DNA of 64,000 nucleotides from the sequence record OQ411014.1; one strand, given 5' to 3'. Made by a program: the position numbers and the translations under genes. Of this stretch, positions 7,972-59,316 are shown one piece after another (within the stretch, counting starts at the first letter, position 1; the number at the start of each line of letters is the position of its first letter). This stretch comes from Escherichia phage EJP2. A model generated the notes under the pieces. The model saw nothing but the letters and a program-made list of their open reading frames with translations. It ran no database searches and had not been told where the DNA came from.

Positions 7972-8001
7972 TTGAGACAAAACTCAATACTATGATATAA
8001 T
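7972..8001 (+). promoter_or_regulatory. sigma70-like promoter TTGAGA-N18-TATAAT with TGA extended -10
   Basis: ttgaga at 7972-7977, tgatataat ending 8001; member of the recurring promoter family. Confidence 0.55.
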
Positions 8002-8031
8002 AGATACATCAACAACAAAGAGGAAATAAAC

Positions 8032-8280
8032 ATGGAACAGAATAAAAAAGAAGCTCAAAACTCCCGTCGCGTAGCAATGGATAAACTATCCGCTCTAACA
8101 GAACTCAAGAAACTACGTCGTGACGGTATCCTAACTCGTCAACAGTTCCGTCGTGAAGTATGGGACAAAGGTCTACAAACTGGCGTGAAAGGTGTTCCAG
8201 AAATCACTGCTTTCGAAGTTGTGAAAGTAGATGGTAAGAAAGCACTAACCGTTCAAGTTCGTCCTTGGGGTCGTATCTGA
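8032..8280 (+). CDS. hypothetical basic protein
   Basis: 82-aa ORF, RBS agagga, downstream of promoter and upstream of strong terminator. Confidence 0.5.
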   Translation: MEQNKKEAQNSRRVAMDKLSALTELKKLRRDGILTRQQFRREVWDKGLQTGVKGVPEITAFEVVKVDGKKALTVQVRPWGRI

Positions 8281-8368
8281 AACGGGCATATTCTAAACAA
8301 TTTTGATAAATAACATTACAAGAATAATAATAAAGTTATTTAACTCCATGTTGTTTAGTTATACTTTC

Positions 8369-8397
8369 CAGCCCACTAATTTAGTGGGCTTTTTTTA
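8369..8397 (+). terminator. hairpin agcccact/agtgggct followed by T7
   Basis: perfect 8-bp stem, 5-nt loop, T-tract. Confidence 0.8.
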
Positions 8398-8409
8398 TGT
8401 GGTGACTAT

Positions 8410-9108
8410 ATGAATTTCGAACAGACAGTACTGAAAGCTGTTAGAGAACACGTAATATACTTCAGTGGTTACAGTACTTTTAGGGGGTATTACATCGTTG
8501 GTTCATTCATGCAATGTAAACGTTGTATCTTCATGGAACCTAAAGATATAGATGTAATTATTGTAACCAATGAGAAAGAAGAAATAGGTGAAAAGGAATA
8601 TAGTTTCTTCATTGAAGAAGCTGATAACATTGAAGTTAATGTTACAGTACTGACACCTGTTGAAAACCTAAATTCTATAATCAGACTCGAACCAAAGTAC
8701 TTTGATTCATTCTGTTCATCTAAGTCTCTTGAATGGGACATTGATGGTATTCGTAATATTTCTAATTCTGAAATCAGGTCTAAGGTCATGAAGTTCTCTG
8801 ACTTAGCTTTCAACAAAGGCAAAAAGAAACTCACCATAGAAAAAGATTACGATGAAGAATTAGGACTCAAGAATATTTGTCATGCTTATCGTTTTCTGAT
8901 TGATGCTATCCGGTTCTATTACCCATCTACACCTATGTTAGAGAAAGAGATGATGGACTTAGGTTATAGCAAGTACCGCAATCGGGTTTATAAAATTTAC
9001 AAAAATACGCAAGGTACACTTGACGATAAGTACCAAGCTATGGTAAAGTACGCTAAACCTGAATACAACAGGATGTGTTCAGAGTTTAGGAAATTGTTCC
9101 CTCGATAA
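8410..9108 (+). CDS. hypothetical protein
   Basis: 232-aa ORF; weak GS...DID nucleotidyltransferase-like pattern only. Confidence 0.45.
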   Translation: MNFEQTVLKAVREHVIYFSGYSTFRGYYIVGSFMQCKRCIFMEPKDIDVIIVTNEKEEIGEKEYSFFIEEADNIEVNVTVLTPVENLNSIIRLEPKYFDSFCSSKSLEWDIDGIRNISNSEIRSKVMKFSDLAFNKGKKKLTIEKDYDEELGLKNICHAYRFLIDAIRFYYPSTPMLEKEMMDLGYSKYRNRVYKIYKNTQGTLDDKYQAMVKYAKPEYNRMCSEFRKLFPR

Positions 9109-9119
9109 AAGGAGTTTAT

Positions 9120-9410
9120 ATGCAATACAGACCACTATACGACCATGTTCTTGCTAAACAGATTGTTCATGAAGCTAAGAGTTCTTTTGGTATCATCCTG
9201 AACAGTACTGGTGTAGAAGAGACAACTACTGCTACTGTTGTTGCAGTTGGTACTGGGTCGAAGAATAGCCTAGGGAAAGTTATTCCAGTTGGTGTAAACG
9301 TAGGTGATGTGGTATCATTCAGTCCTGATGCTGCTGTTCATCGTGTTACACTAGATGGTACTGAATATCTTGTTATGCGTAAAGATTGCATCTTAGGCGT
9401 ACAGGAATAA
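9120..9410 (+). CDS. GroES-like co-chaperonin (Cpn10)
   Basis: RPLYDHVLAK, AVGTG, VNVGDVV, ILGVQE align with E. coli GroES RPLHDRVIVK, AVGNG, VKVGDIV, ILAIVE. Confidence 0.75.
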   Translation: MQYRPLYDHVLAKQIVHEAKSSFGIILNSTGVEETTTATVVAVGTGSKNSLGKVIPVGVNVGDVVSFSPDAAVHRVTLDGTEYLVMRKDCILGVQE

Positions 9411-9411
9411 C

Positions 9412-9445
9412 ATAAAGGGAGCCATTATGGTTCCCTATTTTTATG
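9412..9445 (+). terminator. hairpin gggagccat/atggttccc followed by T-rich tract
   Basis: inverted repeat with one G-U pair after co-chaperonin gene. Confidence 0.55.
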
Positions 9446-9456
9446 AGGTCAATATA

Positions 9457-9798
9457 ATGAACGTGAATACCAGTACTGAACGATTGAAAATTTACGAAAC
9501 ACTAGAACGATATCTTGATATTGATGAAGTTAGTCCACAATATATTATTGACATTTTACAAAAACACGTCGATAATAATCCAGGAAAATGCCTTGTATGT
9601 TATTGCAACGAAGATATGTTAGAAATAACTGCTTCACACTTGGAAACTGATGAAGAATATAACGCCAGACAAAACTTTATCCAACAGCAGCAAGAACGAA
9701 AAGAAACTGAAAAACACATGAAAGCACTGATGAAGAAGTCATCACTCAGTACTGAAGAAAAAGCACTCCTAATCAAATACATTGAGGAAAACAAATGA
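9457..9798 (+). CDS. hypothetical protein
   Basis: start moved to ATG 9457 (gagg RBS, downstream of terminator); coiled-coil-like C-terminus. Confidence 0.45.
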   Translation: MNVNTSTERLKIYETLERYLDIDEVSPQYIIDILQKHVDNNPGKCLVCYCNEDMLEITASHLETDEEYNARQNFIQQQQERKETEKHMKALMKKSSLSTEEKALLIKYIEENK

Positions 9799-10568
9799 AT
9801 CGTGAAAAGATGCTTTATCATGCAAAAGAAAAGGGTTGTTTGAATTTTGATATCTACACAATGAAACGTGAAACACGTGATAACCTGGACTTCCTTTTGG
9901 ATGGTGACTTTTTAGATTTCAAAACAGACAGTGCATTCGGTAATGATCGCAACAGTAAATGGCAGGAATACGTAATCACCAATAGGGGTATTGCATTACT
10001 GGGAGTGTATCGTCTTGAGTATGCACATCTCAATGAACGTGATACTGAAAAACATATCGGTCGCATCGAACAACTTCGTGAATTACTTGATGTTGTTGAT
10101 GTAAAGCTAACTGATATTGAATATGCATTTACGAATAACCAACGTAAATCAGTGAACTACATGAACACCAACTATCCTACTGGTGCAAGTACATTAGTTC
10201 ACAAGATAAAAGAACAAGAAAAAAGTGTTGACACAACTCCCAATGATGAGCTATCATTACTCTCGTTGTTTGAGTTCAGTACTGAATTAGGTAAAAAAGG
10301 TTCCAGTACTAAACGCTCTGACGATTATGTCCTGAAGAAGTGTATGGAAGAACTTGGTGAGTTAGCTCTTGAAGTTACTATCAGTCAAGGTGAATCCTAC
10401 AAAGAACCAGGCAAAGATGGTGTCAAAGGTGAAGCAGTAGATTTAGCGATTTGTGCACTTGACATGTTCGCATTACAATGTAATAATATGAGTCCAGACG
10501 AGATAGAACGTGAGTTCTTGACTTATATGACAACTAAAGTGAATAAGTGGAGAAATACTCTAAAATGA
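9795..10568 (+). CDS. hypothetical protein
   Basis: 257-aa ORF; the C-terminal stretch ELGELALEV...GEAVDLAICALDM is acidic but matches no family motif recognised here. Confidence 0.45.
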   Translation: MNREKMLYHAKEKGCLNFDIYTMKRETRDNLDFLLDGDFLDFKTDSAFGNDRNSKWQEYVITNRGIALLGVYRLEYAHLNERDTEKHIGRIEQLRELLDVVDVKLTDIEYAFTNNQRKSVNYMNTNYPTGASTLVHKIKEQEKSVDTTPNDELSLLSLFEFSTELGKKGSSTKRSDDYVLKKCMEELGELALEVTISQGESYKEPGKDGVKGEAVDLAICALDMFALQCNNMSPDEIEREFLTYMTTKVNKWRNTLK

Positions 10569-10843
10569 GTAACACTAACAGTACTATCAAAGTTGAATGG
10601 TATGATAAAGTTACTGAAGTTCGTGCTCAGTGGGAGAATAATCATTTTATCTCTGACGGCGGGTTAGCTGGGCGAATCTACTTCAGTGATGAGTTCAATC
10701 AAGAATGGAGTGCTGGTGAACCTAAGTATTCAGTACTCCACGATGATGGACAATCTTCAGTAGTAGAGTTCGATGAAGAATGTGAGGAATTTGTTTCTGT
10801 TCAATCACATTTACCAATTATCTATTACAACAAAGAGAAATAA
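10565..10843 (+). CDS. hypothetical protein
   Basis: ATGA overlap with upstream stop; 92 aa. Confidence 0.45.
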   Translation: MSNTNSTIKVEWYDKVTEVRAQWENNHFISDGGLAGRIYFSDEFNQEWSAGEPKYSVLHDDGQSSVVEFDEECEEFVSVQSHLPIIYYNKEK

Positions 10844-11037
10844 TGAAAAAAGTTCTTGCAGTACTGCTATCTACTATGATAGTATCTTGTTCTGCTCCTG
10901 ATGTTAAACCTGGTGAAGCATACCAGGTTTATCCTGGACTGGTACAATTACAAATGCAGGGTGCAACGTACTCTTGTCATGAAATTCACGAAGATAATAC
11001 TCTATCTTTAATGTGTCGCAAAAACCGAATGAGGTAA
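10843..11037 (+). CDS. small putative lipoprotein
   Basis: signal peptide ending in lipobox-like IVSC; 64 aa. Confidence 0.4.
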   Translation: MKKVLAVLLSTMIVSCSAPDVKPGEAYQVYPGLVQLQMQGATYSCHEIHEDNTLSLMCRKNRMR

Positions 11038-11043
11038 TATAAC

Positions 11044-11376
11044 ATGAAAACTTCCGTACTAATTGCAGTTGATACCAGTGGTGAATACAACAACGAACAC
11101 ACCAAGAGTCGAGTACTGGACATTCTTCGTAACCTGTGTCCTCGTTCTAATGTTGATTTGATTACTTTCGATGCTGATGGTATTCTGCAATGGGATATTC
11201 CGGTGTTCCTTGAAAATAACATCGTCGGTTACGAAACCAAATCCGATTTCATGAGCATCCTTGAATATATGGATGAAACTGATTATGACCGTCAATTCAT
11301 TTTAGTTGAAAATTTTGATGGACTTCAAGACACAATTGATGTATATTCTCTGAAAACACACGGCTTTGTAGCCTAA
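11044..11376 (+). CDS. hypothetical protein
   Basis: 110-aa ORF, RBS gagg. Confidence 0.45.
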   Translation: MKTSVLIAVDTSGEYNNEHTKSRVLDILRNLCPRSNVDLITFDADGILQWDIPVFLENNIVGYETKSDFMSILEYMDETDYDRQFILVENFDGLQDTIDVYSLKTHGFVA

Positions 11377-11420
11377 AAAATAAACAACTTAGTAAATAAT
11401 TTCATATAGGAAAACAATAA

Positions 11421-11594
11421 ATGAGCAATACAAATAAACCCCTACTGTGTGGTCACTGTTCCAAAACACTGGGTGAACATAATTCCGTTGACGCAGGGTG
11501 TCCAATTCAAGTAGGGAAACTGGTCGTGGCTTTCAGTAAATCAAAGAAATTCACTGAACATGCTCCTATTGCTAAAATGGAATTCTTTTACTAA
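11421..11594 (+). CDS. small Cys-containing protein (below ORF-track cutoff)
   Basis: 57-aa ORF translated by hand; CGHC and GC cysteine pairs; agga RBS. Confidence 0.3.
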   Translation: MSNTNKPLLCGHCSKTLGEHNSVDAGCPIQVGKLVVAFSKSKKFTEHAPIAKMEFFY

Positions 11595-11741
11595 CTAACA
11601 AATGAAGTACTATAAGCCGTGCCGCTGGGTAATATCAGCATAAGACCGTACGCGACAGAAGCTAATACAGAGAGTCCCTACTCGGTATACCATCCTCTCT
11701 GGGCGATAGTACTTCACCCTTTAATTACAAGGAGTGCAGTG

Positions 11742-12380
11742 ATGAAAGACTTCAAAGATATGACCACATCAGATAAGTACTGGTACATCATCGAACATCC
11801 GGCGTTCATGAATGATGAGTTCGTTTCAGTAAACATCTGTGTTGAACCACAAAACGTATGCCCCATTACTGAACGTATCGAGAATTACAAACCACTGAAT
11901 ACTAAAGTTCAGTACTGGATAGAGTTCTGTCCTCCGTATAAAGATTCGTACACTAATAACAAATTCGTACAATCACACGATACTGATTGTGATTGTGGTG
12001 GTTGGACGTATGAAGAAGCAATCGATAATCTCTTCGATTTGGTTATCGAGAAGTACGGCTCTTACACCGACGAAGACCTAAAAACTAAAATGGGTGAAGT
12101 TTTTGGGACTACCAAACCAGTAATTTGGAAACGCAGCGTTGAGGATCGTGTCCAGGCACTACTCAAACAGCGTACATCAAATAAAGTAGAAGACCCGTTG
12201 GAATTCACTTTCTTAGAAAAAGATATCAAAAATCTAAAAGGTACACTCCATGCCTTGACTGAACATCGAAAGACTGCTAATATAGATTCATACAGTGAAA
12301 TTGACGATTGCATTCAGAATTGTAAAGTAGATATATCTATTCTGGAAGCATCATTAAAAATCGGAATGATGATTGAATGA
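11742..12380 (+). CDS. hypothetical protein
   Basis: ATG at 11742 with aaggag RBS preferred over the GTG at 11619. Confidence 0.5.
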   Translation: MKDFKDMTTSDKYWYIIEHPAFMNDEFVSVNICVEPQNVCPITERIENYKPLNTKVQYWIEFCPPYKDSYTNNKFVQSHDTDCDCGGWTYEEAIDNLFDLVIEKYGSYTDEDLKTKMGEVFGTTKPVIWKRSVEDRVQALLKQRTSNKVEDPLEFTFLEKDIKNLKGTLHALTEHRKTANIDSYSEIDDCIQNCKVDISILEASLKIGMMIE

Positions 12381-12751
12381 ATCCCAAATTAGAACGATTG
12401 GTAAATGAATTACGTACCCTGCCACCTTTGGAGTTAGATGAAGGTGCAGGGCGTAGACGTTATCGTGTTATTGCACGTGCACTTGATAAGCGTGGACGTG
12501 TGATTTGTACCAGAACTAACACGTATAAAACGTCACATCCAGTACAGAAGCATTTCGCGTTAAAGGTTGGTCGTCCTGATGCAATCTTTTTGCACGCTGA
12601 AATTTCAGTACTACTCTCTGCAAAACAGGATGTTCATACACTCCTTATTGCTAGAATCGATAGTAATGGTAATCCCGCTCTCGCTAAACCTTGCGAGATT
12701 TGTTCTATCGCAATTCAGCAATACGGTGTAAAAGAAATTATCCATACATAA
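12377..12751 (+). CDS. CDA-fold zinc-dependent nucleotide deaminase (dCMP deaminase-like)
   Basis: HAE and PCEIC zinc-binding/catalytic motifs at deaminase spacing; 124 aa. Confidence 0.55.
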   Translation: MNPKLERLVNELRTLPPLELDEGAGRRRYRVIARALDKRGRVICTRTNTYKTSHPVQKHFALKVGRPDAIFLHAEISVLLSAKQDVHTLLIARIDSNGNPALAKPCEICSIAIQQYGVKEIIHT

Positions 12752-12760
12752 GGAAGTACA

Positions 12761-13318
12761 ATGACTATTATCGTGAATTTAGTAGGTGGTCCGTGCTGTG
12801 GAAAAAGTACTACTGCTGCTGGACTATTCAGTACTATGAAACTTCAAACAACTAACAAGGTTGAACTTGTTACTGAAGTTATCAAAGACCATGTGTACGA
12901 TGAGAACAAAGGTGCAATGCAAGACCAGGTTCTTCTTACTGCTGAACAGAATCACCGATTCAAACGTTTAGATGGTAAAGTTGATTTTGTAATCTCGGAC
13001 GCTTCCCTTTTGAACGCAATCGTGTATAATCAGTTCTACAATCAAAACAAAGATATCAGTACTGAACTATCTCGTAAACTATTCGAGAAGTACGATAACG
13101 TTGTATTCTTCCTTCCACGTAAGCCTCAATATGATGCATACGGACGTACACAGTCAGAAGAAGATGCACGTTTCATCGATGAACTTTTCGAGAGTGTGTT
13201 CTGGGAATATTCTATTCCTTTCATTGATATGCGTGAATATACTCACGATGTTCTTCCAGAAAAGATTCTTGAGAAACTTCAAGAGAAATTTGGCAATACT
13301 GTAACCCTACGAGGCTAA
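12761..13318 (+). CDS. P-loop NTPase/kinase (AAA_28/NadR-like)
   Basis: Walker A GGPCCGKST at N-terminus; 185 aa. Confidence 0.5.
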   Translation: MTIIVNLVGGPCCGKSTTAAGLFSTMKLQTTNKVELVTEVIKDHVYDENKGAMQDQVLLTAEQNHRFKRLDGKVDFVISDASLLNAIVYNQFYNQNKDISTELSRKLFEKYDNVVFFLPRKPQYDAYGRTQSEEDARFIDELFESVFWEYSIPFIDMREYTHDVLPEKILEKLQEKFGNTVTLRG

Positions 13319-13319
13319 T

Positions 13320-13502
13320 ATGAAAACAATCTTCAGTAAAGAGTACGATGGAGAAGATCTTTACGATCTAAATCGTGATATCAGTGAAGCACTGGATGAA
13401 CGATTCAATACGTTAGTAGGTTCAATCCCTACTGATGAAAATGGTATTCAAGAAGGTAAATTCATTGTAACAGTAAAGTGGACTGCACACGAGGATGACT
13501 AA
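13320..13502 (+). CDS. hypothetical protein
   Basis: 60-aa ORF in tight operon spacing. Confidence 0.4.
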   Translation: MKTIFSKEYDGEDLYDLNRDISEALDERFNTLVGSIPTDENGIQEGKFIVTVKWTAHEDD

Positions 13503-13945
13503 TGCTTCAGTACTGTGATGGTATAGAGGTTAGTCACTATATAGAATCCAGAATACACAAGTATGATTTCTTAGGTTTTCTACCATTGATTGATGTGGAC
13601 GGTCTTGAGTACTATACTGTTGAAAACAAAGGTAGATTGAGTGATATTTTTGCACGTGTTTCTCCTGTTATTGGTGAGGAATCGGACATGATTACTGAAC
13701 TTGAGTATTGGTTCACTCAACCGATTCCCCAAGATGCACGAGAAGAACGAAAGTTATATCATGAATATTATCGTGATGAATTTATAAAACGCTTGCAAGA
13801 ATGGAAATACTGTGTTAGATTCTTAGGGTGCGACGACGCTGATTACTTCATGCGTTTCAAAAACAAGGAACATGCTCTGGAGTTCCTAAATACCGTCAGT
13901 TCGTTTGACGAAATATATAATCATGAACATTCAATGATGTGGTAA
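13502..13945 (+). CDS. hypothetical protein
   Basis: 147-aa ORF, start overlaps upstream stop. Confidence 0.5.
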   Translation: MLQYCDGIEVSHYIESRIHKYDFLGFLPLIDVDGLEYYTVENKGRLSDIFARVSPVIGEESDMITELEYWFTQPIPQDAREERKLYHEYYRDEFIKRLQEWKYCVRFLGCDDADYFMRFKNKEHALEFLNTVSSFDEIYNHEHSMMW

Positions 13946-13955
13946 GGAAAATATA

Positions 13956-14369
13956 ATGGCTAATACTATTGCAATGAAAAACACAACCACTGGTGAAATC
14001 CGTAATGGTTTCACTGGTTTCTCTTGGACAACCCTGTTCTTCTGGGCTTTCCCAGCAATCTTCCGAATGGACTTTGTTACATTCATCGTGGTGTTCCTAG
14101 TAACACTAGTACTGTCAGCTACTACCATGTTCGGTGGTGCTATCCTAGTAATCGTATGGGCGTTCCTGTACAACCGTTACTACACCATTAGTCTTATCCG
14201 AAAGGGTTACAAGTTCAATGGTACTCACGAAGAGAACAAAGCAGCAGCAATGATTCTCAGGATTGAACTAAATGCTAATAACTGTCTAACTACTGAACCA
14301 GTACCACAAACTCCAGCACCTGCACCAGTTGCACAACCTGAAGTTCAGGGAGAACCAGTACAGAAATAA
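13956..14369 (+). CDS. membrane protein with Pro/Ala/Gln-rich C-terminal tail
   Basis: two hydrophobic helices; 137 aa. Confidence 0.5.
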   Translation: MANTIAMKNTTTGEIRNGFTGFSWTTLFFWAFPAIFRMDFVTFIVVFLVTLVLSATTMFGGAILVIVWAFLYNRYYTISLIRKGYKFNGTHEENKAAAMILRIELNANNCLTTEPVPQTPAPAPVAQPEVQGEPVQK

Positions 14370-14380
14370 TCCTCTCTAAG

Positions 14381-14406
14381 AGCGTCCTTTATGGACGCTT
14401 TTTTCG
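14381..14406 (+). terminator. hairpin agcgtcc/ggacgct followed by T7
   Basis: perfect 7-bp stem plus T-tract. Confidence 0.8.
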
Positions 14407-14526
14407 TTTTATGTTAATGAAATATAACAGTACTAATATTGATTTAGGTCAACGTATTTTGGGCTTCATGGACGTATAATTCTTCTCAATGGATGTAAAT
14501 AATTTACTAATAACAAGGAGAAGAAT

Positions 14527-22946: not shown

Positions 22947-22980
22947 ACTCAATTGAGGTTGTCTATTGACAGCCTCTTTT
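22947..22980 (+). terminator. hairpin aggttgtc/gacagcct followed by T7
   Basis: 8-bp stem with one G-U pair, overlaps -35 of next promoter. Confidence 0.55.
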
Positions 22981-22994
22981 TTTCTTGATATAAT
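22966..22994 (+). promoter_or_regulatory. sigma70-like promoter TTGACA-N17-TATAAT
   Basis: ttgaca 22966-22971, tataat 22989-22994 preceded by tga. Confidence 0.55.
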
Positions 22995-23021: not shown

Positions 23022-23333
23022 ATGCAATACAGAACACCAGTACTGATCAATCGATACAAAAGTAAAGACTTTGATGTTTACATTGGTCGTGGGACAAAAT
23101 GGGGAAACCCGTTCCCAATCGATGAAGCATGTGGTCAAACTCGCCTAATCGTTATTGAAATGTACAGACACCAAATGTATGAATGGCTAGAAAATGGAAC
23201 CATCACTGTTCAGGATATTTTGGATTTATCGGGAAAAACCATTGCATGTTCTTGTGCACCAAAGGCATGTCATGGAGATATAATCATAGAGGTATTCAAT
23301 GAAATAGTGAGTATGATGAATGCAGGAACATAA
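23022..23333 (+). CDS. DUF4326-like small protein
   Basis: FDVYIGRGTKWGNPF resembles the YIGR...WGNPF signature recalled for DUF4326. Confidence 0.55.
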   Translation: MQYRTPVLINRYKSKDFDVYIGRGTKWGNPFPIDEACGQTRLIVIEMYRHQMYEWLENGTITVQDILDLSGKTIACSCAPKACHGDIIIEVFNEIVSMMNAGT

Positions 23334-26671: not shown

Positions 26672-26701
26672 TTGAGATGAATGAAAATTTTGTGATATAA
26701 T
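26672..26701 (+). promoter_or_regulatory. sigma70-like promoter TTGAGA-N18-TATAAT with TGTGA
   Basis: ttgaga 26672-26677, tgtgatataat 26691-26701; fires into an ORF-free region. Confidence 0.55.
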
Positions 26702-26704: not shown

Positions 26705-27175
26705 TAGTACGGATAACACCTATGTTGAATGTCTTTGATAAACAGAACCTGATCCACTCGAAAATGTAGAGGGCAGATGAGTAGAACATTCACTACGAAG
26801 TGCAAATGAAACCCGTCAGTAATAAAGCGTAAGTGCGGTCATACAAACGAGACGTAAGACACACGCGACACGGCAAAGCGGCACTATAAAAGCGATAAGA
26901 AAACATATTCGCTCTTGATAGACTTATGAGGCATACTCACCCAGTTGAAAGGGAGTCTCTTTACGGAGAGACAGCAGTATTTGTTGCTGAATTAGCAAGT
27001 ACTGTAAGCGTGTGAGGAACACGACCGTTGTATGCAGACTGTAGTAGCTGGAAACAGGACAACCCGCCAGCGTTGCTACTTTTATTTGTACGGGAAAGAT
27101 CCGTCCAAAAAGTAGTGAATCTACAAATTCAGATTGGTAAGACTACCAGCGTCAGGATATTCCTGATTTTTTTTC
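26705..27175 (+). ncRNA. candidate structured non-coding RNA (about 470 nt), identity unknown
   Basis: no ORF of 60 aa or more on the plus strand; locally GC-richer; bounded by promoter 26672-26701 and hairpin plus T8 at 27153-27175; internal perfect hairpin gtctct/agagac. Confidence 0.3.
27153..27175 (+). terminator. hairpin cagga/tcctg followed by T8
   Basis: short stem and long T-tract at the end of the ORF-free region. Confidence 0.5.
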
Positions 27176-27311
27176 GGCCCTCCCTTGTGGGGGGATGGAA
27201 TTGGATCAACAAACCTCGTCAAGTATAATATGAATAGTATTAGTACTTAATAATTCAAATGAATTGAGAGATATGAGATGAGCGATAGCGAAATCGAATA
27301 TGTCTCAATTC

Positions 27312-27332
27312 TTGGCTTACGCAGTAAGCCAA
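27312..27332 (+). promoter_or_regulatory. perfect 9-bp hairpin in the 5' leader of the 27355 gene
   Basis: ttggcttac gca gtaagccaa, 10 nt upstream of RBS aggag. Confidence 0.4.
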
Positions 27333-27354
27333 CGAAACATTACAGGAGCTTATC

Positions 27355-32783: not shown

Positions 32784-33233
32784 ATGACGTTAGAAGAATT
32801 ACTAAGTACTCATAAGTACTACATTGATGATGATAATAAAAATATTTCGGCTATCATTTCTATGTTGAATACAAAGTACAACCTACATGGTAAGTCCCCT
32901 AAAGCTGACGAAATTTTGGAATCACCGAAGAAATTTTTGATGTACAATCCAAAAACAAAGTGCATTCGACTTGTTGACAAAAGTTACTTAGCACCAGAAA
33001 CAACATTTACGGATATCGTCCGTGTGTACACTGGATTGCCATTCACTATCAATCATTTATTCGTTGAGGTGTACAGTACTGGAAGTCCTAATTACTGGAA
33101 TTATGCAGTACATAAAGGTGATGTAACACGTTACTTCAAACTGACCAAACTCAATGCTTGGCTTGAAGAAGAATACGTTGATACATCTGAAATGATCAAA
33201 ATTGAAGATTCGTACATACAAAATGTGAGATAA
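32784..33233 (+). CDS. hypothetical protein
   Basis: 149-aa ORF. Confidence 0.45.
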   Translation: MTLEELLSTHKYYIDDDNKNISAIISMLNTKYNLHGKSPKADEILESPKKFLMYNPKTKCIRLVDKSYLAPETTFTDIVRVYTGLPFTINHLFVEVYSTGSPNYWNYAVHKGDVTRYFKLTKLNAWLEEEYVDTSEMIKIEDSYIQNVR

Positions 33234-33254
33234 CGTCACAAAATGTGATATAAT
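33225..33254 (+). promoter_or_regulatory. sigma70-like promoter GTGAGA-N18-TATAAT with TGTGA
   Basis: tgtgatataat 33244-33254; same architecture as the other family members. Confidence 0.5.
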
Positions 33255-33282: not shown

Positions 33283-33426
33283 ATGAAACTACTCCGTAAT
33301 AGCTTATTTGCGTTTTACATGGATTATCAAATCTCGCTAAAACTAAATCCAGTACTGACAGTACTAGGAACAGCCACTGTTGCAGCTTTCACTGCATGGT
33401 TAGTTACACTGTTTTGTGCTCTATAA
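33283..33426 (+). CDS. small hydrophobic peptide (47 aa, below ORF-track cutoff)
   Basis: translated by hand: MKLLRNSLFAFYMDYQISLKLNPVLTVLGTATVAAFTAWLVTLFCAL; RBS aaggaa; directly downstream of promoter. Confidence 0.4.
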   Translation: MKLLRNSLFAFYMDYQISLKLNPVLTVLGTATVAAFTAWLVTLFCAL

Positions 33427-33441: not shown

Positions 33442-34071
33442 ATGACAACTCACGTTAGGTATTATATTGCATATAATGGAAGACCAGTTCGTTCTATTGG
33501 ATTAGATCTTGAGCCAGTAATGTCTGTACAGACTAATCTATACTTCAGTACTGAAGAAGAAGCAGACTCTTTCATTATGACTAGGATTGCAACTGCGTCC
33601 ACTACACTTTATCATATTCATTTTGATTGTATTGATAAGTACTCAATCGTCAAAGAAATTGTTCAGTTGGAACCGTGCAGTACTAAAACTAATTATATGC
33701 GAAACTATACTCTAACTTGGTTGCGATTACTCGACCAGGATATCTGTACTGATTCTATGATTTCCACTACTATACGTGCGTTCGTCATGCGTGGGTTTAG
33801 TACATCAGGATTGGATTTAGAAGAAGTGAAAAACTTGATTTTGGGTAATCCAAAACTTCAAAAAACCATTGACAAACTTATTCCAAAGCATATAATCTCT
33901 AATATTGAAAATTACATGCAAGATGGTTTAGTCAATGCTCCGGTGGAAGAGCTTGAATTCTTGAATCTAACAATTTCAGATGAAATGAAATTTGATCTTG
34001 ACTTCGAAGAACTCTTCCCTTACAATAAGTTCAAACCAACAAAATGGGAAAATCATGGAACTAGTAACTGA
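33442..34071 (+). CDS. hypothetical protein
   Basis: 209-aa ORF. Confidence 0.45.
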   Translation: MTTHVRYYIAYNGRPVRSIGLDLEPVMSVQTNLYFSTEEEADSFIMTRIATASTTLYHIHFDCIDKYSIVKEIVQLEPCSTKTNYMRNYTLTWLRLLDQDICTDSMISTTIRAFVMRGFSTSGLDLEEVKNLILGNPKLQKTIDKLIPKHIISNIENYMQDGLVNAPVEELEFLNLTISDEMKFDLDFEELFPYNKFKPTKWENHGTSN

Positions 34072-41002: not shown

Positions 41003-41032
41003 TTGAGATATTTTCGAAAAAAGTGATATATT
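41003..41032 (+). promoter_or_regulatory. sigma70-like promoter TTGAGA-N18-TATATT with TGA
   Basis: same architecture as the family, weaker -10. Confidence 0.4.
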
Positions 41033-41064: not shown

Positions 41065-41742
41065 ATGCGATATACATGCGGGATAATATTTTATCGAAAC
41101 GGTCAGATACTTGTAGGTCACACGACTGGTCAGAGTCATTGGGATTTACCGAAAGGTAAGACTGAAGGTTCTGAGACATTCAAGGAAGCGGCAGTTCGTG
41201 AATGCTATGAAGAAACTGGATACAGTATTGATGAACGAGATTTACTGTACTTAGGTGATGTATCATACAGAAAGGGAAAGCGTTTAGTACTGTTCTTTTA
41301 CACAGCCAAGACGAAACCAATTGCTGAAGAGTTGCAATGTATCAGTACTTACACGAATAAGTACGGTATTGTACGTCCAGAGTTGGACAAATTCAAGTAC
41401 ATAGACATTGAGGACTGTGAACTCTACTTGACTGAACGGATGTGTGATAGTATAATCAAAGCTATTACACAATTTGATAAAAAGACAAATAAAAAGGAAG
41501 ATAATATGAAAGTTGTAATTTATGGTCGTAAAGCTGGTTGTAAGTGGTGTACTACTGCTAAAGAAGTTTGTGAAACTAACTCAATTGATTTTGATTTCAT
41601 TGATTTAGATGAAGCTGGTATTGATGGTGCTAAACTCGCTGAAATTTGTGGCACTCCAGTACGTACTGTTCCACAAATTTTCGTTGACGATCAACACATT
41701 GGTGGTTGTACTGAGTTTATTTCGCACCTATCCAAAATGTAA
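41065..41742 (+). CDS. Nudix hydrolase fused in frame to a glutaredoxin/NrdH-like domain
   Basis: perfect Nudix box GKTEGSETFKEAAVRECYEETG; C-terminal MKVVIYGRKAGCKWC (CxxC) preceded by internal RBS aggaag at 41494 and ATG 41506, no stop between the domains. Confidence 0.6.
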   Translation: MRYTCGIIFYRNGQILVGHTTGQSHWDLPKGKTEGSETFKEAAVRECYEETGYSIDERDLLYLGDVSYRKGKRLVLFFYTAKTKPIAEELQCISTYTNKYGIVRPELDKFKYIDIEDCELYLTERMCDSIIKAITQFDKKTNKKEDNMKVVIYGRKAGCKWCTTAKEVCETNSIDFDFIDLDEAGIDGAKLAEICGTPVRTVPQIFVDDQHIGGCTEFISHLSKM

Positions 41743-48800: not shown

Positions 48801-48846
48801 ATGCTAAATAAATGATAATATGTTTTTTACAGATAGAGGTTACTTT

Positions 48847-49620
48847 ATGGCAAATATGTTAGACAAATACGGTGTACCGCTACCTAGTGGAGCTAACCGT
48901 ACAATGCTCCAGCCAAAAGCAAAGTATAAATTCAGAGTAATTGTATACAATTTCGGTACTGAGATTGATGAACGTGATCACATCGCACTGGACGTTGATG
49001 CAGTAGATAGACCAAGCATTACATTCAAAACACATAAGGTGTTTCAGTTCACCACGAACTCATCCTATGTTGGTAGCCACGACTGGAACCCAATTAAATT
49101 AACAATTCGTGATTCTATTGGTAACAAAAGTACTAAAGCGATTTCACGTCAATTACAAAAACAACTTGACTTTCAACGTAGGATTACGGCAAAATCAGAA
49201 CAGGATTATTCAGGCTATAAGTTCGGCATGATTATCCAAATGCTAAATGGTAGAAATAGTGATGATTCTCTTGACAATCTAGGAAGAGACACTATAATTG
49301 ATGCTGCAACTGCTGCAACCAATAATGGTGGTTTAGTTAACGCTGTGGATCAATTCCTAGGTGGAAGCAACTACAACAGTGCTGGAGTTATGGAGTACTT
49401 TGTATGTACTGGTTGTATCATAACTGATACCGACTATGATTCACTGGACTACTCTTCAAGTGCACCATTGAAAATATCCCTTACTATTAAGCCGGATACT
49501 GTACATCAATTTGATTCAATTGAGGAAATGTATAAAACCCGCATATCTTCTTTACTACCAGATGGTGTGAATCAGGGTCTTGATATACTTGATCGCATAA
49601 TCGGTTCAGTAGGTTTATAA
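48847..49620 (+). CDS. putative tail tube protein (paralog 2)
   Basis: start at ATG 48847 (agagg RBS); MANMLDKYGVPLPSGANRTMLQPKAKYKFRVI. Confidence 0.5.
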   Translation: MANMLDKYGVPLPSGANRTMLQPKAKYKFRVIVYNFGTEIDERDHIALDVDAVDRPSITFKTHKVFQFTTNSSYVGSHDWNPIKLTIRDSIGNKSTKAISRQLQKQLDFQRRITAKSEQDYSGYKFGMIIQMLNGRNSDDSLDNLGRDTIIDAATAATNNGGLVNAVDQFLGGSNYNSAGVMEYFVCTGCIITDTDYDSLDYSSSAPLKISLTIKPDTVHQFDSIEEMYKTRISSLLPDGVNQGLDILDRIIGSVGL

Positions 49621-52304: not shown

Positions 52305-52307
52305 TAT

Positions 52308-54358: not shown

Positions 54359-54376
54359 TTTATAAGGATTTATGAA

Positions 54377-55351
54377 ATGAAAAACAAAATCAATGAAGCA
54401 TCTATCAAACTTGATGTGAACGGTCTTGAGTCATCTGACTTCGATACCTTATCCCGTATGCTTGCTCTAGCTGGTCAAGCTGAAACACAGGGTGGTAATA
54501 ACCCTGGTATGTCCGAACTACCAAAAATGAAAGCATTCGACTTTGATGCATTTGGTGGTGACGAAGCTGAAGTTGAACCAATTCCTTCTGCTGATCCATT
54601 TGGAGAGCCGGAGGCTGAACTTTCCGTCGAACCAATGGCAGAACCTGAAGTTGGTTCTGAAGAAGAACTTTCTCTTGACTTAGATGGTTCACCGTCACTA
54701 GAATCTGGTGATGAGTTCGAAGAAGATGATTTCGATTTCGGACGTATGTCTGAACTAGCTGGTCTAGGTGAAAGTGTTTCTCTAGCAACTTCAGAAGACG
54801 AAGCTGGTGAAGGTGAAGTAGAAGATGCTGATGAACTTGCCAAAGATGAAGAAGATGCAGCAGCAGAAGAACTTTCTGAAAAACTACTCCCTGACCTATC
54901 TCTAGATGAAGATGCTGAAGCACGATCTGACGATGGTGATCGTCACCACGTTGTGGATTCAAAAGAACATGGTCCATTCAGTACTGAACGTGAAGCTGTT
55001 CATGATGCAATGCGTGTAACCAATGGTACTGAATTCGAACATTTTGCTATCATCCCAGGAAAAGACGGTTATTACTGGAGACGTAACCTACAAGAAGGTT
55101 TCGATAACGAACCAGAACCAGAAGTTGTTGATATGGATGGTATTGAAAATAGTCGTCATGAATTCAAACGTGTTCCAGGAACTGCACTTGGTGATAACCC
55201 ACTAAAAGAATCTGAAGATGAAGACTCAGATAAGTGTGACAAATGCCACGAAGATCCATGTGAGTGTTCGGACGAGAAACTAGATGAAGATGTATCTGAC
55301 ATTCTAGAGAGCATCAATGCTCGCTACAATGAATACATCAAAGGTCTATAA
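54377..55351 (+). CDS. highly acidic low-complexity protein with C-terminal Cys cluster
   Basis: long D/E-rich tracts; CDKCHEDPCEC near the C-terminus; 324 aa. Confidence 0.5.
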   Translation: MKNKINEASIKLDVNGLESSDFDTLSRMLALAGQAETQGGNNPGMSELPKMKAFDFDAFGGDEAEVEPIPSADPFGEPEAELSVEPMAEPEVGSEEELSLDLDGSPSLESGDEFEEDDFDFGRMSELAGLGESVSLATSEDEAGEGEVEDADELAKDEEDAAAEELSEKLLPDLSLDEDAEARSDDGDRHHVVDSKEHGPFSTEREAVHDAMRVTNGTEFEHFAIIPGKDGYYWRRNLQEGFDNEPEPEVVDMDGIENSRHEFKRVPGTALGDNPLKESEDEDSDKCDKCHEDPCECSDEKLDEDVSDILESINARYNEYIKGL

Positions 55352-55352
55352 T

Positions 55353-55748
55353 ATGGATTATCGGTCATTAGTAGAATCTCTTGACAATATAATGCATGGT
55401 GAAGAGGGTTCGGATGAACTCTCTCCACAAGAATTACTAAAAGGGATTGTTCAATCACTACAGGGAATCACAAACTGTATCAGTGCTGAAGAAATCCAAG
55501 ATTATGATGCATTGATAGAAGTTTTGAAAGATGTGAAAAATATGCTTGACGAAGTTCAAGATACCCAATATAATGAACCCCATCAAGACGAGACAGTTGA
55601 AGAAGACCTTCTACCTCTTGATAGTATTGAAGGTAACGAGTTAGGTACTAAAGGTATGGGGCCAACAATCGACAGTGCTGGTAAACAGAACTACGCGAAG
55701 AAAGACGGCAAATCATACGCAGAGCGGAAAGGCTTCGTAGGTCCATAA
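55353..55748 (+). CDS. hypothetical acidic protein
   Basis: start at ATG 55353 immediately after upstream stop. Confidence 0.45.
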   Translation: MDYRSLVESLDNIMHGEEGSDELSPQELLKGIVQSLQGITNCISAEEIQDYDALIEVLKDVKNMLDEVQDTQYNEPHQDETVEEDLLPLDSIEGNELGTKGMGPTIDSAGKQNYAKKDGKSYAERKGFVGP

Positions 55749-55749
55749 T

Positions 55750-56130
55750 ATGATGATGATACCGCCAACTGATCGTACTGACTCCCAGATGGAAGTACTT
55801 TCTAAAATACGGTCAGTACAAGTGGAAAAATCTGACTTAACCGACCGTTTAGTACTGAAGTCTATCTTTGAAAATTACAGATCCGGTTCGGGTATGAGAT
55901 TGAGTAAATTTGGTAAAGAGATGTGCATTGAGCATGAACTCTATGAGTTTGCTAAGTTTAATATCCCTAAAGGAACTAAGAAATCAGTACTGTTTATAAC
56001 GCTTGACAGATTATGCAAAGAGCCGTATTATGTAGAAGGTTTCGATGTGTTTCTGTCGGATGCACAAGTAATAACAGAACTGACATTTTGTTGTGATGAT
56101 TTTGAAAAATTGATTAAACTTTATTTGTGA
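55750..56130 (+). CDS. hypothetical protein
   Basis: 126-aa ORF. Confidence 0.45.
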   Translation: MMMIPPTDRTDSQMEVLSKIRSVQVEKSDLTDRLVLKSIFENYRSGSGMRLSKFGKEMCIEHELYEFAKFNIPKGTKKSVLFITLDRLCKEPYYVEGFDVFLSDAQVITELTFCCDDFEKLIKLYL

Positions 56131-56154
56131 CAAACCAATAAAGTGTGATATAAT
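56125..56154 (+). promoter_or_regulatory. sigma70-like promoter TTGTGA-N18-TATAAT with TGTGA
   Basis: tgtgatataat 56144-56154; family architecture. Confidence 0.5.
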
Positions 56155-56301
56155 AGTTTTACAGTTTACAAGGCACTCTGATTTAAAATAAAATAAAATC
56201 AAAAGTGCCTTCTCTTTTGCCAAAATTTATGATACACTATAAATTCTGACAAAAGCATCTCACTAAAACGAGATGAGTTAAAAAAAGATTTAAAAAAGTG
56301 G

Positions 56302-56330
56302 TTGACAAGGCATTAAGAAGTACGTATAAT
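56302..56330 (+). promoter_or_regulatory. consensus sigma70 promoter TTGACA-N17-TATAAT
   Basis: perfect -35 and -10 hexamers with 17-bp spacer, about 120 bp upstream of the AAA+ gene. Confidence 0.7.
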
Positions 56331-56448
56331 TAATCACATCAAGACGAGAACGTGATTGAACAAATGAGAAAAAGGACTTGACTCTACCAACGGATTTTGG
56401 TAAACTAAACAAACTTTACTTATCATCAATAAATGAGGAATCAATACT

Positions 56449-57780
56449 ATGTCTACTAACAACGACCTGCTGAACATCAAACTGTCCCCAAAACAAGCTA
56501 AAGCTGCTATGGAAGCTGCTGACCTGTGCCGCGATAGTCTGATGATTTGGGGTGCACCTGGTATCGGTAAATCCGCAATTGCACGTCAATACGCTGATGA
56601 GAAATATCCACTGCGTAAAGACAACGTTGGTCGTATCGCATCTCTGAACAATCGTATTGCTCAAGAAACTGATGCTGATGAGAAGAAAGCACTAGAACGT
56701 GAACTGGCTTCACTAGAATCCAAACTGATTGATCAAGATACCAACTTCATTGACTTCCGTCTGTCTCAGATTGAACCAACTGACTTACGTGGTATCCCAG
56801 TTCCAGAAAAACTGTTCCGTTCTACTAACGGTAACCTGTTGAAAGAATCTGAACTGGCTGAAGCGAAAGAGTACGTAGCTGAAACCGCAGTAACTTGGGC
56901 TGCTCCTAAAGTACTGAAACTGGCTGACGATTGGAAAGGTGTGATTCTGTTTGATGAAATCAACTCCGCAATGCCGATTGTACAAGCAGCGTCCTACCAG
57001 CTAATTCTGGACCGTTGTGTTGGTGAAATGAAACTACCATCTACTGCACTGATTCTTGCAGCAGGTAACCGTGACGGTGACGGCGGTGTAACTTTCACCC
57101 TAGCTACTCCACTGCGTGACCGTATGACTCACATTGAAGTCACTCCGAATCACACTGACTGGATTGATGACTATGCAATCAACAAGCGTCTGAACGCAGC
57201 GACTGTAGCATTCATCAACAACACTGGTAGCAAGTACTTCAACACGCTAGACCCGAACAACCCAAGCCATGCTGGTGGTACTTCTCCACGCTCTTGGGAA
57301 AAAGTAGCCGAGTACGAAGATCTGAATCAAAAAGGTCTGTTGACTAAAGAAATCTACCGTGCTATGATTGCTGGACGTGTTACCGATGGTATCGCAGTTG
57401 AGTACATCGAGTTTGTTGAGAACGTTGCATCTCTACCAGATACCATGAAGATTCTGACTGGTGAGATCAAAGAGATTGATAAAGACTTGGATATTTCTTC
57501 CAACTACTTCATCACTCTGAACCTAGTGTACAAGATTATCGCACTCTTCGAAGAGAAGAATGAGAAACGTCTAAGTGCAGAAGAGTGGAACCAAATGGCG
57601 AATAACTTCGTAGTGTTCCTAGACCACAACTTCTCTGCAACACAAGGTGAGTTGGCAGTACTAGCAATTCGTAACATTACTATCGCAGGTGTTACTATGT
57701 CTTACAACGATGTTCCAGCGTTCCAGCCGTTCGTAAAACGCTACATGGGTCTAGTTCGTAAAGCACGTGCACTGAAGTAA
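56449..57780 (+). CDS. MoxR-type AAA+ ATPase (AAA_5-like)
   Basis: Walker A GAPGIGKS; Walker B VILFDEINSA; LILAAGNRDG sensor; LATPLRDRM; CTG-rich codon usage unlike neighbouring genes. Confidence 0.8.
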   Translation: MSTNNDLLNIKLSPKQAKAAMEAADLCRDSLMIWGAPGIGKSAIARQYADEKYPLRKDNVGRIASLNNRIAQETDADEKKALERELASLESKLIDQDTNFIDFRLSQIEPTDLRGIPVPEKLFRSTNGNLLKESELAEAKEYVAETAVTWAAPKVLKLADDWKGVILFDEINSAMPIVQAASYQLILDRCVGEMKLPSTALILAAGNRDGDGGVTFTLATPLRDRMTHIEVTPNHTDWIDDYAINKRLNAATVAFINNTGSKYFNTLDPNNPSHAGGTSPRSWEKVAEYEDLNQKGLLTKEIYRAMIAGRVTDGIAVEYIEFVENVASLPDTMKILTGEIKEIDKDLDISSNYFITLNLVYKIIALFEEKNEKRLSAEEWNQMANNFVVFLDHNFSATQGELAVLAIRNITIAGVTMSYNDVPAFQPFVKRYMGLVRKARALK

Positions 57781-57790
57781 TAACTCAAAA

Positions 57791-57817
57791 GGAGGCTGAA
57801 TAATCAGTCTCCTTTTT
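57791..57817 (+). terminator. hairpin ggaggctga/tcagtctcc followed by T5
   Basis: 9-bp stem with one G-U pair; may attenuate between the two module genes. Confidence 0.6.
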
Positions 57818-57840
57818 AAACAAACCGAGGAAATCATATA

Positions 57841-59253
57841 ATGAGTAAATTCAATAATTTGTCTACTAAACTTCCCGATTCAGTTTTGCAAGAATGTAAT
57901 GAACGTATGGTACTAGCTCGTACTTCACTGATGCTCTCTAAACCATTCTTTGGTGTTTTGGCATCTCGTCTTCGCCCAGTACCGAATGATACTTGGTGTC
58001 GTACGATGGCAGTAGATGGCAAACACTTGTACTATAACGTAGAATTCGTTATGGGTTTACAAGACCAAACTAAACGTGCACAATACGAAGAAGCACTAAA
58101 AGAATCAATCGACGATATCAGTACTGAACAAATCAATGACGTACTGAACGGTCTATCTGACCAGAACCTGATTGCTGTACTGTGTCATGAAATTCTTCAC
58201 TGTGCTTATGACCACTTCTTGCGTCGTGGTATGCGTGACCCACAACTGTTCAACAAAGCTGCTGACTATGCAATCAACCAGATTCTAGTTCGTGAAAACA
58301 TTGGTAAGATTCAGTCTTCTTGGTTGTACGACAAGAAATATGACGGAATGACCGCTGAAGAAATCTATGTTCTTCTTGAAGAAGAGAAGAAGAAAGAAGA
58401 GCAAGAAAACGGTGGTGGTGATGGCGACGGTGATGGTTCCGATGACCAAGATGGCGATGGTGACGGAAACAGCAACGGTGGTGGTAAGAAGAAAGGTAAG
58501 AAAGGTAAAGGCGGCACAATTGACCAGCATGACGTACCACAAGAAGGTGATGGTGAAGTAAGTGATGCCAAGCGTCGTGAATATATGGAAGATTTCAAAA
58601 CTGCAATGATGAACGCAGCACGTGCTGGTGGTACTCCAGCAGAAATCGAACGTATGATTGACTCCTTCACTAAACCAAAAATCGACTGGCGTTCTAAACT
58701 ACAACGTACTATGCGTTCTTGCATGAAGTCCGATGTAATTTTCTCTAACCCAAGTCGTCGTTCTTGGAGTACGGGCTTCGGTCACAGTGGTTCTTTCTTT
58801 GGTTCTCCTATCTTCCCAGGACTGAAACCAGATGAAGATATTGATATTGCAATTGCACTTGATGCGTCAGGTTCTATCAGTAATGATATGTTGCGTGACT
58901 TCATCAGTGAAGTGATGGGAATCACCAAACAGTTCAAACAGTTCAAGATTCGTATTATGACTTTTGATACTAAGGTTTATACTGTTCGTGATTATAAAAC
59001 TGGTGAAGAGAAGAAGATTCTAGAATATCCAGTTCATGGAGGTGGTGGTACTGATTTCCAAGCAGTTTGGGATCATATGCGTGATGACAACTACCGTCCA
59101 AAACAACTCGTAATGTTCACTGATGGTGAGCCGTGGGATTCCTGGGGTGACGAAAACTATTGTAAGACTCTTTTCGTAATCCACTCCAACCCTGAAAAGA
59201 TTGCACCATTCGGTGAAACCGTACACTACGAGTACGAAGCGAAGCAACACTAA
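57841..59253 (+). CDS. HExxH metallopeptidase-like domain plus vWA domain protein (DUF2201-like architecture)
   Basis: HEILH motif; G/D and K/G low-complexity linker; MIDAS-like DASGS in IALDASGSIS; 470 aa. Confidence 0.7.
   Translation: MSKFNNLSTKLPDSVLQECNERMVLARTSLMLSKPFFGVLASRLRPVPNDTWCRTMAVDGKHLYYNVEFVMGLQDQTKRAQYEEALKESIDDISTEQINDVLNGLSDQNLIAVLCHEILHCAYDHFLRRGMRDPQLFNKAADYAINQILVRENIGKIQSSWLYDKKYDGMTAEEIYVLLEEEKKKEEQENGGGDGDGDGSDDQDGDGDGNSNGGGKKKGKKGKGGTIDQHDVPQEGDGEVSDAKRREYMEDFKTAMMNAARAGGTPAEIERMIDSFTKPKIDWRSKLQRTMRSCMKSDVIFSNPSRRSWSTGFGHSGSFFGSPIFPGLKPDEDIDIAIALDASGSISNDMLRDFISEVMGITKQFKQFKIRIMTFDTKVYTVRDYKTGEEKKILEYPVHGGGGTDFQAVWDHMRDDNYRPKQLVMFTDGEPWDSWGDENYCKTLFVIHSNPEKIAPFGETVHYEYEAKQH
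58381..58515 (+). repeat. low-complexity tract within the CDS (E/K-rich, then GDGDGDG, then G/K-rich)
   Basis: encodes EEKKKEEQENGGGDGDGDGSDDQDGDGDGNSNGGGKKKGKKGKGG. Confidence 0.8.
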
Positions 59254-59261
59254 TATAAATA

Positions 59262-59298
59262 ATGCGTAAGTTCAGGATGTTCTTACGCATTTTATTTT
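59262..59298 (+). terminator. hairpin atgcgtaag/cttacgcat followed by T-rich tract
   Basis: perfect 9-bp stem, 11-nt loop. Confidence 0.65.
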
Positions 59299-59316
59299 GA
59301 GATATCATAAGAAATT
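59287..59316 (+). promoter_or_regulatory. sigma70-like promoter TTGAGA-N18-TATAAT with TGTGA
   Basis: ttgaga 59287-59292, tgtgatataat 59306-59316. Confidence 0.55.

Follow-up and report, generated by a model that had tools for sequence, protein, structure and literature searches.

Concerning the promoters of jumbo myophages in the RaK2/CBB/121Q group, we can deduce some information from phage CBB, for which three promoter types were predicted (Buttimer et al. 2017, PMC5259590): an RpoD-like type that includes an UP element and is found mainly in what is presumed to be the early region, a divergent RpoD-like type, and a T4-late-like type with the motif ATAAATA. The second of these, listed as Promoter 1 ('divergent RpoD-like') in Supplementary Table S6 of that paper, reads TGAAACG-N14-(A/G)TG(G/A/C)TATAAT, i.e. 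TGAAACG...TGGTATAAT; it is present in 18 copies, 11 of which lie in the DNA-synthesis region CBB_258-329 and one before the gp55-like gene, and it was reported for Cronobacter phage GAP32 too (PMC5259590). In the current study, a recurring promoter architecture with six copies, here named class M, was analysed in a stretch of 64,000 nucleotides (nt) from Escherichia phage EJP2 (the window), which is part of a jumbo myophage of this same group. Comparison of the sequences places these six sites in the promoter class already predicted for CBB and GAP32, and they would not represent a new kind of element.

The likeness between CBB Promoter 1 and class M extends from the element to its genomic setting. 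Both combine a TG-purine-rich box located 23 nt before TATAAT with an A/T-rich spacer and TG-n-TATAAT, and both occur in many coding-strand copies before genes of DNA and nucleotide metabolism and before gp55-like sigma genes, while being distinct from a canonical early class. A bridge between the two is provided by phage fHe-Yen9-04, in which the ortholog of the window promoter at 26672 is of the CBB type (TGAAACA...ATGGTATAAT), whereas the window carries TGAGAT...TGTGATATAAT with the same non-coding RNA (ncRNA) module behind it. The two differ in the box (TGAAACG in CBB, TGAGAT in the window) and in the extended -10 element ((A/G)TGG as against TGTGA), and the CBB class is known from MEME prediction alone.

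Six matches to TTGAGA-N18-TATAAT with no more than one mismatch were found in the window, all on the + strand (7972, 26672, 33225, 41003, 56125 and 59297), where 1.11 were expected; none of 100 shuffled sequences reached six. The related pattern TGATATAAT gave seven matches against 1.66 expected. A position weight matrix trained solely on 30 sites of Erwinia phage Hallingskeid, then run over the window, recovered exactly these six sites at 26-33 bits, with the runner-up at 10 bits and a null expectation above 20 bits of 0.005 matches. Loose generic sigma70 scans of the window remained at shuffle level (68 versus 69, 85 versus 75 and 64 versus 57 expected), indicating that the signal is carried by specific architectures and not by promoter-like sequence in general. 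The T4 late motif TATAAATA was without enrichment in the window (two found, 5.9 expected), and a search of IMG/VR with the strict class pattern returned eight single matches, which is the chance level.

The six sites share the pattern tTGAGAyA-N13-(T)GTGA-TATAAT. In order, the anatomy of class M comprises an A/T-rich upstream stretch, a lineage-specific box TG(A/G)(A/G)A(C/T) with its first T 23 nt ahead of the -10 element, an A/T-rich spacer, an extended -10 (T)GTGn, and TATAAT. If taken as a -35 hexamer, the box (TTGAGA at four of the six sites, GTGAGA and TTGTGA at the others) matches TTGACA at four to five of six positions, always with a spacer of 18 base pairs (bp). The -10 hexamer is TATAAT at five sites and TATATT at 41003, while TG is present at -15/-14 in all six, as TGTG or GTG in five; at 7972 the sequence is TATGA in place of TGTGA. 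Every site is on the coding strand at a gene boundary, at or a few bases from the upstream stop codon, directly behind stop codons or terminators, and the distance from the end of the -10 element to the start codon is 29-33 nt at three sites, a conserved RNA following otherwise. These features make it almost certain that the six sites are promoters. A reading of TGTGA as part of a CRP site was rejected, as no TCACA partner occurs at the right distance and the TGTGA-N7-TCACA at 33225 has the wrong spacing.

An earlier sequence-only reading of the window had claimed a recurring sigma70-family architecture with an extended -10 element at six sites and had proposed a motif search for the full pattern; that search, run on the window, returned exactly six matches, all on the + strand, and the architecture is both genuine and recurrent. 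Five of the positions it gave were correct and the sixth, placed at 59287, in fact starts at 59297, while its statement that TGTGA and TATAAT occur throughout holds for most sites, the exceptions being those at 41003 and 7972 noted above.

The relationship of the window to Hallingskeid allowed the class to be examined at the level of a whole genome. DNA similarity between the window and known phages is patchy, with a best match of about 80% identity in a search of a phage collection. Nevertheless, gene order is collinear with Hallingskeid at approximately 238-307 kilobases (kb), in reverse orientation, through PhoH, anaerobic ribonucleotide reductase, nucleotidyltransferase, RNA ligase, CCA-adding enzyme, Nudix, deoxynucleoside monophosphate kinase, tail sheath and tube, ATPase and thymidylate synthase. 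Approximately 92 of the 95 genes called in the window are on the + strand, and about 7% of the window is intergenic DNA. The Hallingskeid genome was assembled whole, and a class-M census identified 30 copies by strict and 31 by relaxed definition, every one on the gene strand and located from 53 to 344 kb, with none in the first 50 kb. Their consensus is aAaATtTT-TGGGATA-N-AAAAA-TGTGATATAAT-A, and they precede the genes for DNA polymerase, topoisomerase II, DHFR, primase, helicase and SSB, two transfer RNA (tRNA) clusters, regions free of open reading frames (ORFs), and the gp55-like late sigma gene. The box holds 1.2-2 bits per position, from which we conclude that it is under selection within the genome.

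The early region of Hallingskeid, which is made up of short genes, has a uniform class of its own, in which an A-rich stretch is followed by (A/G)CTTGCA or TTGACA, nine bases, and CAGTACTG abutting TATAAT; 17 of its 20 copies fall in the interval 0.9-20 kb, and its TG stands directly against the -10 element, not at -15/-14. Class M in Hallingskeid is therefore separate from the canonical TTGACA class in both sequence and genome position.

The RNA module behind the promoter at 26672 also follows a promoter of the class-M architecture in Hallingskeid (four copies), Munch, PBECO4, Turkey5, K64-1 and fHe-Yen9-04, and these orthologs were compared. The box before the module is TGAGAT in the window, TGGGAT in Hallingskeid, TGGGACA with one extra spacer base in Munch, GTGAGAC in PBECO4, TTTGGGAAA in Turkey5, TGAAACA in fHe-Yen9-04 and CTGAACG in K64-1, and in each case where enough sites were read to define a wider consensus for the lineage, the box fits it. 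The promoter of the Nudix gene (41003) behaves likewise: its position is conserved, with TGAGAT/TATATT in the window, TGGGAT/TATATT in Hallingskeid, and TGGGACA, one extra spacer base and TATACT in Munch. The sites at 7972, 56125 and 59297 have positional orthologs in Hallingskeid. The base after the TG varies by lineage (A, C or G), and the 121Q-like group has not kept the leading TTG (TCTGGGAA, AGCGGGAC, GATGAGAC). Across the lineages compared, orthologous promoters thus keep their position while the box at the -35 position is the lineage's own. Class M is a real, discrete and conserved promoter class that stands before both genes and ncRNAs, with a box that differs from lineage to lineage.

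Among other described systems, the middle promoters of phage T4, which depend on sigma appropriation by MotA and AsiA, offer a parallel. They too form a second tier with a sigma70-type -10 element, often with an extended TG, and a phage-specific box that replaces the -35 element, and they too stand before genes of replication and nucleotide metabolism, tRNAs and the late sigma gene. The MotA box itself, (a/t)(a/t)(a/t)TGCTTtA, is centred at -30 and lies 11-13 bp from the -10 element; neither the six window sites nor the Hallingskeid consensus has TGCTT at that position, and the class-M box, in contrast, sits at the -35 position, 17-18 bp from the -10 element. A further difference is that T4 is without a sigma70-like gene, while jumbo phages of this group carry their own. 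Bacterial extended -10 promoters of sigma70/sigmaA (TGnTATAAT or TRTGn) resemble class M in TATAAT, in TG at -15/-14 and in a partly conserved -35 element; they differ in that the class-M box at this position is strongly conserved within each genome, non-consensus and lineage-specific, with a spacer fixed at 18-19 bp. The composite promoter-plus-stem-loop motifs PeSL and PmSL of T4-like phages (PMC2839356, PMC4122927) also join a promoter and a stem-loop at gene boundaries. Terminator overlap of this kind is seen in the window at 59297 and at the canonical promoter 22966 alone, and inverted repeats are present in Hallingskeid. The stem-loop of PeSL, however, is a terminator upstream of the promoter, while in the class-M repeat the 5' arm is the box itself and the repeat is mostly followed by A-runs.

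Taken together, these comparisons would suggest that class M is a phage-factor-dependent middle promoter class, a reading to which we assign a probability of roughly 55% and in which we infer both the reader protein and the time of firing. To our knowledge, phages of the RaK2/CBB/121Q group are without an RNA polymerase of their own. The distant relative PA5oct is sensitive to rifampicin (PMC7318152), and on both counts the likely transcriber is the host core enzyme. Class M would accordingly be transcribed by the host RNA polymerase core through a sigma70-family factor recognising the -10 and extended -10 elements, while the box would be read by a phage-encoded specificity factor, the prime candidate being the phage's own early-expressed sigma70-like protein. 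In the cascade envisaged, host sigma70 would act at canonical early promoters to yield the phage sigma, which would activate class M as a middle tier serving nucleotide metabolism, replication, tRNAs, ncRNAs and the gp55-like late sigma, and the latter would in turn direct the late genes.

A sigma70-like protein with Pfam regions 2 and 3 and a divergent C-terminal helix is encoded by every relative examined. These proteins can be aligned to SigA/RpoD from region 1.2 to 4.1 and are 31-46% identical between lineages. The Hallingskeid sigma gene lies within a block of canonical TTGACA-N17-TATAAT promoters, and that of CBB is downstream of an RpoD-like promoter. Just upstream of the CBB sigma gene, a 1.2-kb stretch of the CBB record (329405-330631) between CBB_510 and the helix-turn-helix (HTH) regulator CBB_511 is without annotated genes and may be a noncoding locus.

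The argument for a phage-encoded reader comes chiefly from the boxes. The named hosts of these phages are all Enterobacterales, among which region 4.2 of sigma70 is nearly invariant, and a concerted, genome-wide change of the box under such conditions points to a reader supplied by the phage. A more specific proposal, which we hold tentatively and with less confidence than the middle-class reading as such, is that the box TG(A/G)(A/G)A(C/T) would be the recognition element of the phage sigma70-like protein or another phage factor with which it co-evolves, each lineage having adjusted a middle-promoter code of its own without giving up the host-like extended -10 element, and that the same promoters would launch the clade-wide structured ncRNAs.

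Several observations weigh against the phage-factor reading. The counterparts of H455 and E458, through which sigma70 contacts the TG, are Y/H/Q and V in the phage proteins, and the tryptophan dyad of region 2.3 is missing, which weakens the case for the phage sigma as the protein that reads TG-TATAAT. Across five phage sigmas the helices of region 4.2 differ, and no clean match between them and the box sequence was found. These comparisons cover relatives, the sigma gene of the window phage itself lying outside the 64-kb window, and a literature search on RaK2-, 121Q- and CBB-like phages yielded no mapped transcription starts and no data on timing.

The strongest competing explanation, which we regard as a serious if clearly less probable one, is that the sites are plain host-sigma70 promoters that combine an extended -10 element, a weak -35 element (TTGAGA) and an 18-bp spacer and that fire from the start of infection with no phage factor involved. 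Promoters with an extended -10 element can work with a poor -35 element, host sigma70 has its optimal extended -10 sequence in TGTGnTATAAT, and the TG, the TATAAT and the TTGAGA boxes (a five-of-six match to TTGACA) occur in the window at the frequencies given above, so that unaided use is plausible; the absence of canonical TG-contacting residues from the phage sigma points in the same direction. The rifampicin sensitivity of PA5oct and its mapped promoters, which carry TATAATA and TTGAC motifs (PMC7318152), were also counted in its favour. It accounts less readily for the sharp separation of class M from the TTGACA class, in sequence and location, within one genome, for the selection evident on the Hallingskeid box, and for the switch of box between lineages at orthologous promoters (TGAGAT, TGGGAT, TGGGACA with its extra base, GAGAC, TGAAAC, TGAAC), including the loss of the leading TTG in the 121Q group; furthermore, the spacer is always 18-19 bp and never the optimal 17. 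The sequence-only reading had assigned the sites to host sigma70; this assignment finds partial support, and the comparative data lean against it.

A second alternative holds that the box is one half of a dyad-symmetric operator centred near -28.5, bound by a dimeric phage protein (a repressor, or a Mu Mor/C- or MerR-like activator acting on over-long spacers), or an RNA or DNA hairpin, with either sigma factor at the -10 element. Hallingskeid provides the evidence for it: the box, with its T-run, and the spacer form site-specific inverted repeats (TTTGGGA/TCCCAAA, AAATCTGGG/CCCAGATTT, ATAATTG/CAATTAT), the mean longest exact arm is 5.23 compared with 4.36 +/- 0.21 when the 3' segments are permuted among sites (none of 1000 permutations reached the observed value), and the point of maximal symmetry is constant, 7-7.5 nt beyond the initial T of the box. 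One orthologous pair differs in both arms at once (TATTGAG/CTCAATA in the window, TTTGGG/CCCAAA in Hallingskeid), and spacers of 18-19 bp would also fit. The six window sites, on the other hand, are without a clear symmetry peak (3.7 of nine pairs against a background of 2-4), arms of 5-7 bp occur in just three of them, the feature is weak in 121Q-like sites, and most of the hairpins are followed by an A-run and hence are not terminators. We consider this explanation unlikely. The window sites at which weak inverted repeats were listed are 7972, 33225 and 56125. CBB_511 (Pfam HTH_37), which is encoded beside the CBB sigma gene, was considered as the dyad-binding factor and rejected, as it has no counterpart beside the Hallingskeid sigma gene.

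That the repeats are not promoters at all, and represent another cis element or the remnants of mobile cassettes that resemble a promoter, is very improbable: recombination-mediating PeSL/PmSL cassettes are known in T4-like phages (PMC4122927) and the sites at 59297 and 22966 overlap terminator hairpins, but all six class-M sites lie on the coding strand at gene boundaries with a constant 29-33 nt from the -10 element to the start codon where a gene follows, TG and TATAAT are near-invariant in position in about 31 Hallingskeid sites and across lineages, and the flanks are unrelated, so that no cassette-sized repeat exists.

With regard to the individual units, all on the + strand, the site at 7972..8001 (TTGAGA-N18-TATAAT, TG at -15/-14, 30.8 bits) precedes a gene of 82 amino acids (aa) at 8032-8280 which ends at a terminator at 8370-8390; its Hallingskeid ortholog is at position 304796 of the record with the box TTGGGAC. 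The site at 26672..26701 (27.0 bits) heads a conserved ORF-free region at 26708-27354, corresponding to a predicted structured ncRNA. At 33225..33254, GTGAGA-N18-TATAAT (31.4 bits) has a box that overlaps the stop codon of the gene at 32784-33233, and it precedes an ORF for a hydrophobic peptide of 47 aa (33283-33426). This ORF, MKLLRNSLFAFYMDYQISLKLNPVLTVLGTATVAAFTAWLVTLFCAL, which is shorter than the usual gene-calling length, is hydrophobic in its C-terminal segment and comes with a good ribosome-binding site. The site at 41003..41032, with its -10 element TATATT (26.1 bits), immediately follows the tRNA nucleotidyltransferase stop codon and precedes the Nudix-glutaredoxin gene, which runs from the ATG at 41065 to 41742 (Pfam NUDIX and Glutaredoxin). 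The site at 59297..59326 (29.8 bits) overlaps the T-run of an upstream terminator hairpin at 59263-59289, precedes a small gene starting at 59347 or 59359, and has its Hallingskeid ortholog at record position 242657.

The remaining site, at 56125..56154 (TTGTGA-N18-TATAAT, 32.8 bits), has a box that overlaps the stop codon of the gene at 55750-56130 and an ortholog at Hallingskeid record position 245694. It is followed on the + strand by an intrinsic-terminator-like hairpin at 56170..56218 (AAGGCACT...AGTGCCTT, then CTCTTTTG), approximately 10 nt past the predicted transcription start, with a fold energy of -14.2 kcal/mol (z = -3.78), and the 3' arm and tail of this hairpin are identical in Hallingskeid. 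Because this conserved terminator hairpin comes at once, the promoter probably yields an RNA of about 58 nt or an attenuated leader and not the messenger RNA of the ATPase. The segment from the promoter through the hairpin (56155-56222) could be a small RNA of about 58 nt or an attenuator ahead of the ATPase/DUF2201-VWA pair. The promoters nearest to the ATPase gene are a TGnTACACT element at approximately 56231 (TG-A-TACACT), which is aligned with TGGTATAAT in Hallingskeid, and the canonical promoter at 56302.

As the sequence-only reading had proposed, the ncRNA, the small hydrophobic peptide and the Nudix-glutaredoxin gene are each headed by a class-M site (26672, 33225 and 41003, respectively). 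Its fourth unit, the AAA+ module, was borne out in part: the site at 56125 is upstream of the ATPase/DUF2201-VWA pair, but the terminator hairpin intervenes and the promoters at about 56231 and 56302 are nearer. The two sites which it had described as classic TTGACA-N17-TATAAT, 22966 and 56302, are perfect in sequence; they belong to a separate canonical class and not to class M, and its count was short, as two others, at 33869 and 49271, were missed.

Perfect TTGACA-N16-18-TATAAT sequences number four in the window, all on the + strand, against 0.13 expected. The first (22966..22994, TTGACA-N17-TATAAT with TG at -15/-14) lies within a terminator hairpin at 22955-22976 and precedes a DUF4326 gene at 23022; hairpin, TTGAC and -10 element are conserved in Hallingskeid and Munch. 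That at 56302..56330, also TTGACA-N17-TATAAT, has AAGTACG abutting the -10 element and lies 119 nt upstream of the ATPase gene at 56449, within an insertion of about 170 nt which is specific to this phage and which Hallingskeid is without; it resembles the Hallingskeid early class (CAGTACTG-TATAAT) and is the sole look-alike in the window. The other two have the form TTGACA-N16-TATAAT and are located inside reading frames: 33869..33896 within the ORF at 33442-34071, about 100 nt before the annotated RNA ligase start, for which no alignable ortholog was recovered in Hallingskeid or Munch, and 49271..49298 within the tail-tube gene at 48820-49620, where the region aligns with Hallingskeid and Munch and neither hexamer is conserved in either phage.

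The ORF-free region behind the promoter at 26672 retains 73-89% DNA identity between lineages whose DNA otherwise bears little resemblance to the window, and three to four paralogous copies are present per genome (in the Hallingskeid record at 276243, 53240, 196988 and 341561). All ten copies examined lie 45-95 nt behind a class-M promoter. Within the region, a conserved RNA module of 75 nt (26747-26824) adopts the same predicted fold in the ten copies, comprising a hairpin CUGAUCCACUC[GAAAAUGUA]GAGGGCAG and an inner hairpin, with compensatory double changes in seven of 11 predicted pairs. Searches of the region downstream of 26672 returned nothing from Rfam at gathering thresholds, and noise alone at E <= 1, and no tRNA or transfer-messenger RNA was found there. 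A hammerhead-like reading of CAGAUGAG...CGAA was discarded given that U4 of the ribozyme core is absent and Rfam gave no match. The region is probably a member of an undescribed family of structured phage RNAs of approximately 400-650 nt. Four abundant ncRNAs have been described in PA5oct (PMC7318152).

A separate observation concerns the palindrome AGTACT, which occurs 243 times in the window compared with 23.7 +/- 5.1 expected, or about once per 263 bp (for example at 2755, 14429, 44469/44480 and in the region of 48742), in all codon phases and in intergenic DNA, and in the extended form CAGTACTG 83 times. In Hallingskeid the count is 1313 (3.6 per kb), and the early promoters of that phage have CAGTACTG set directly against the -10 element. 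This striking, genome-wide and approximately tenfold excess might reflect a binding or modification site.

Based on the findings of this study, class M provides a reliable annotation rule for transcription units in this phage and its relatives, including those of ncRNAs and of very small peptides which are missed or mis-annotated by gene callers. The presence of a different box in each lineage at one and the same orthologous promoter makes it testable what is read by the sigma70-like factor that marks the 'group 2' jumbo phages. Should the box indeed co-evolve with a phage factor, these phages would offer a natural series of matched sigma and promoter variants.

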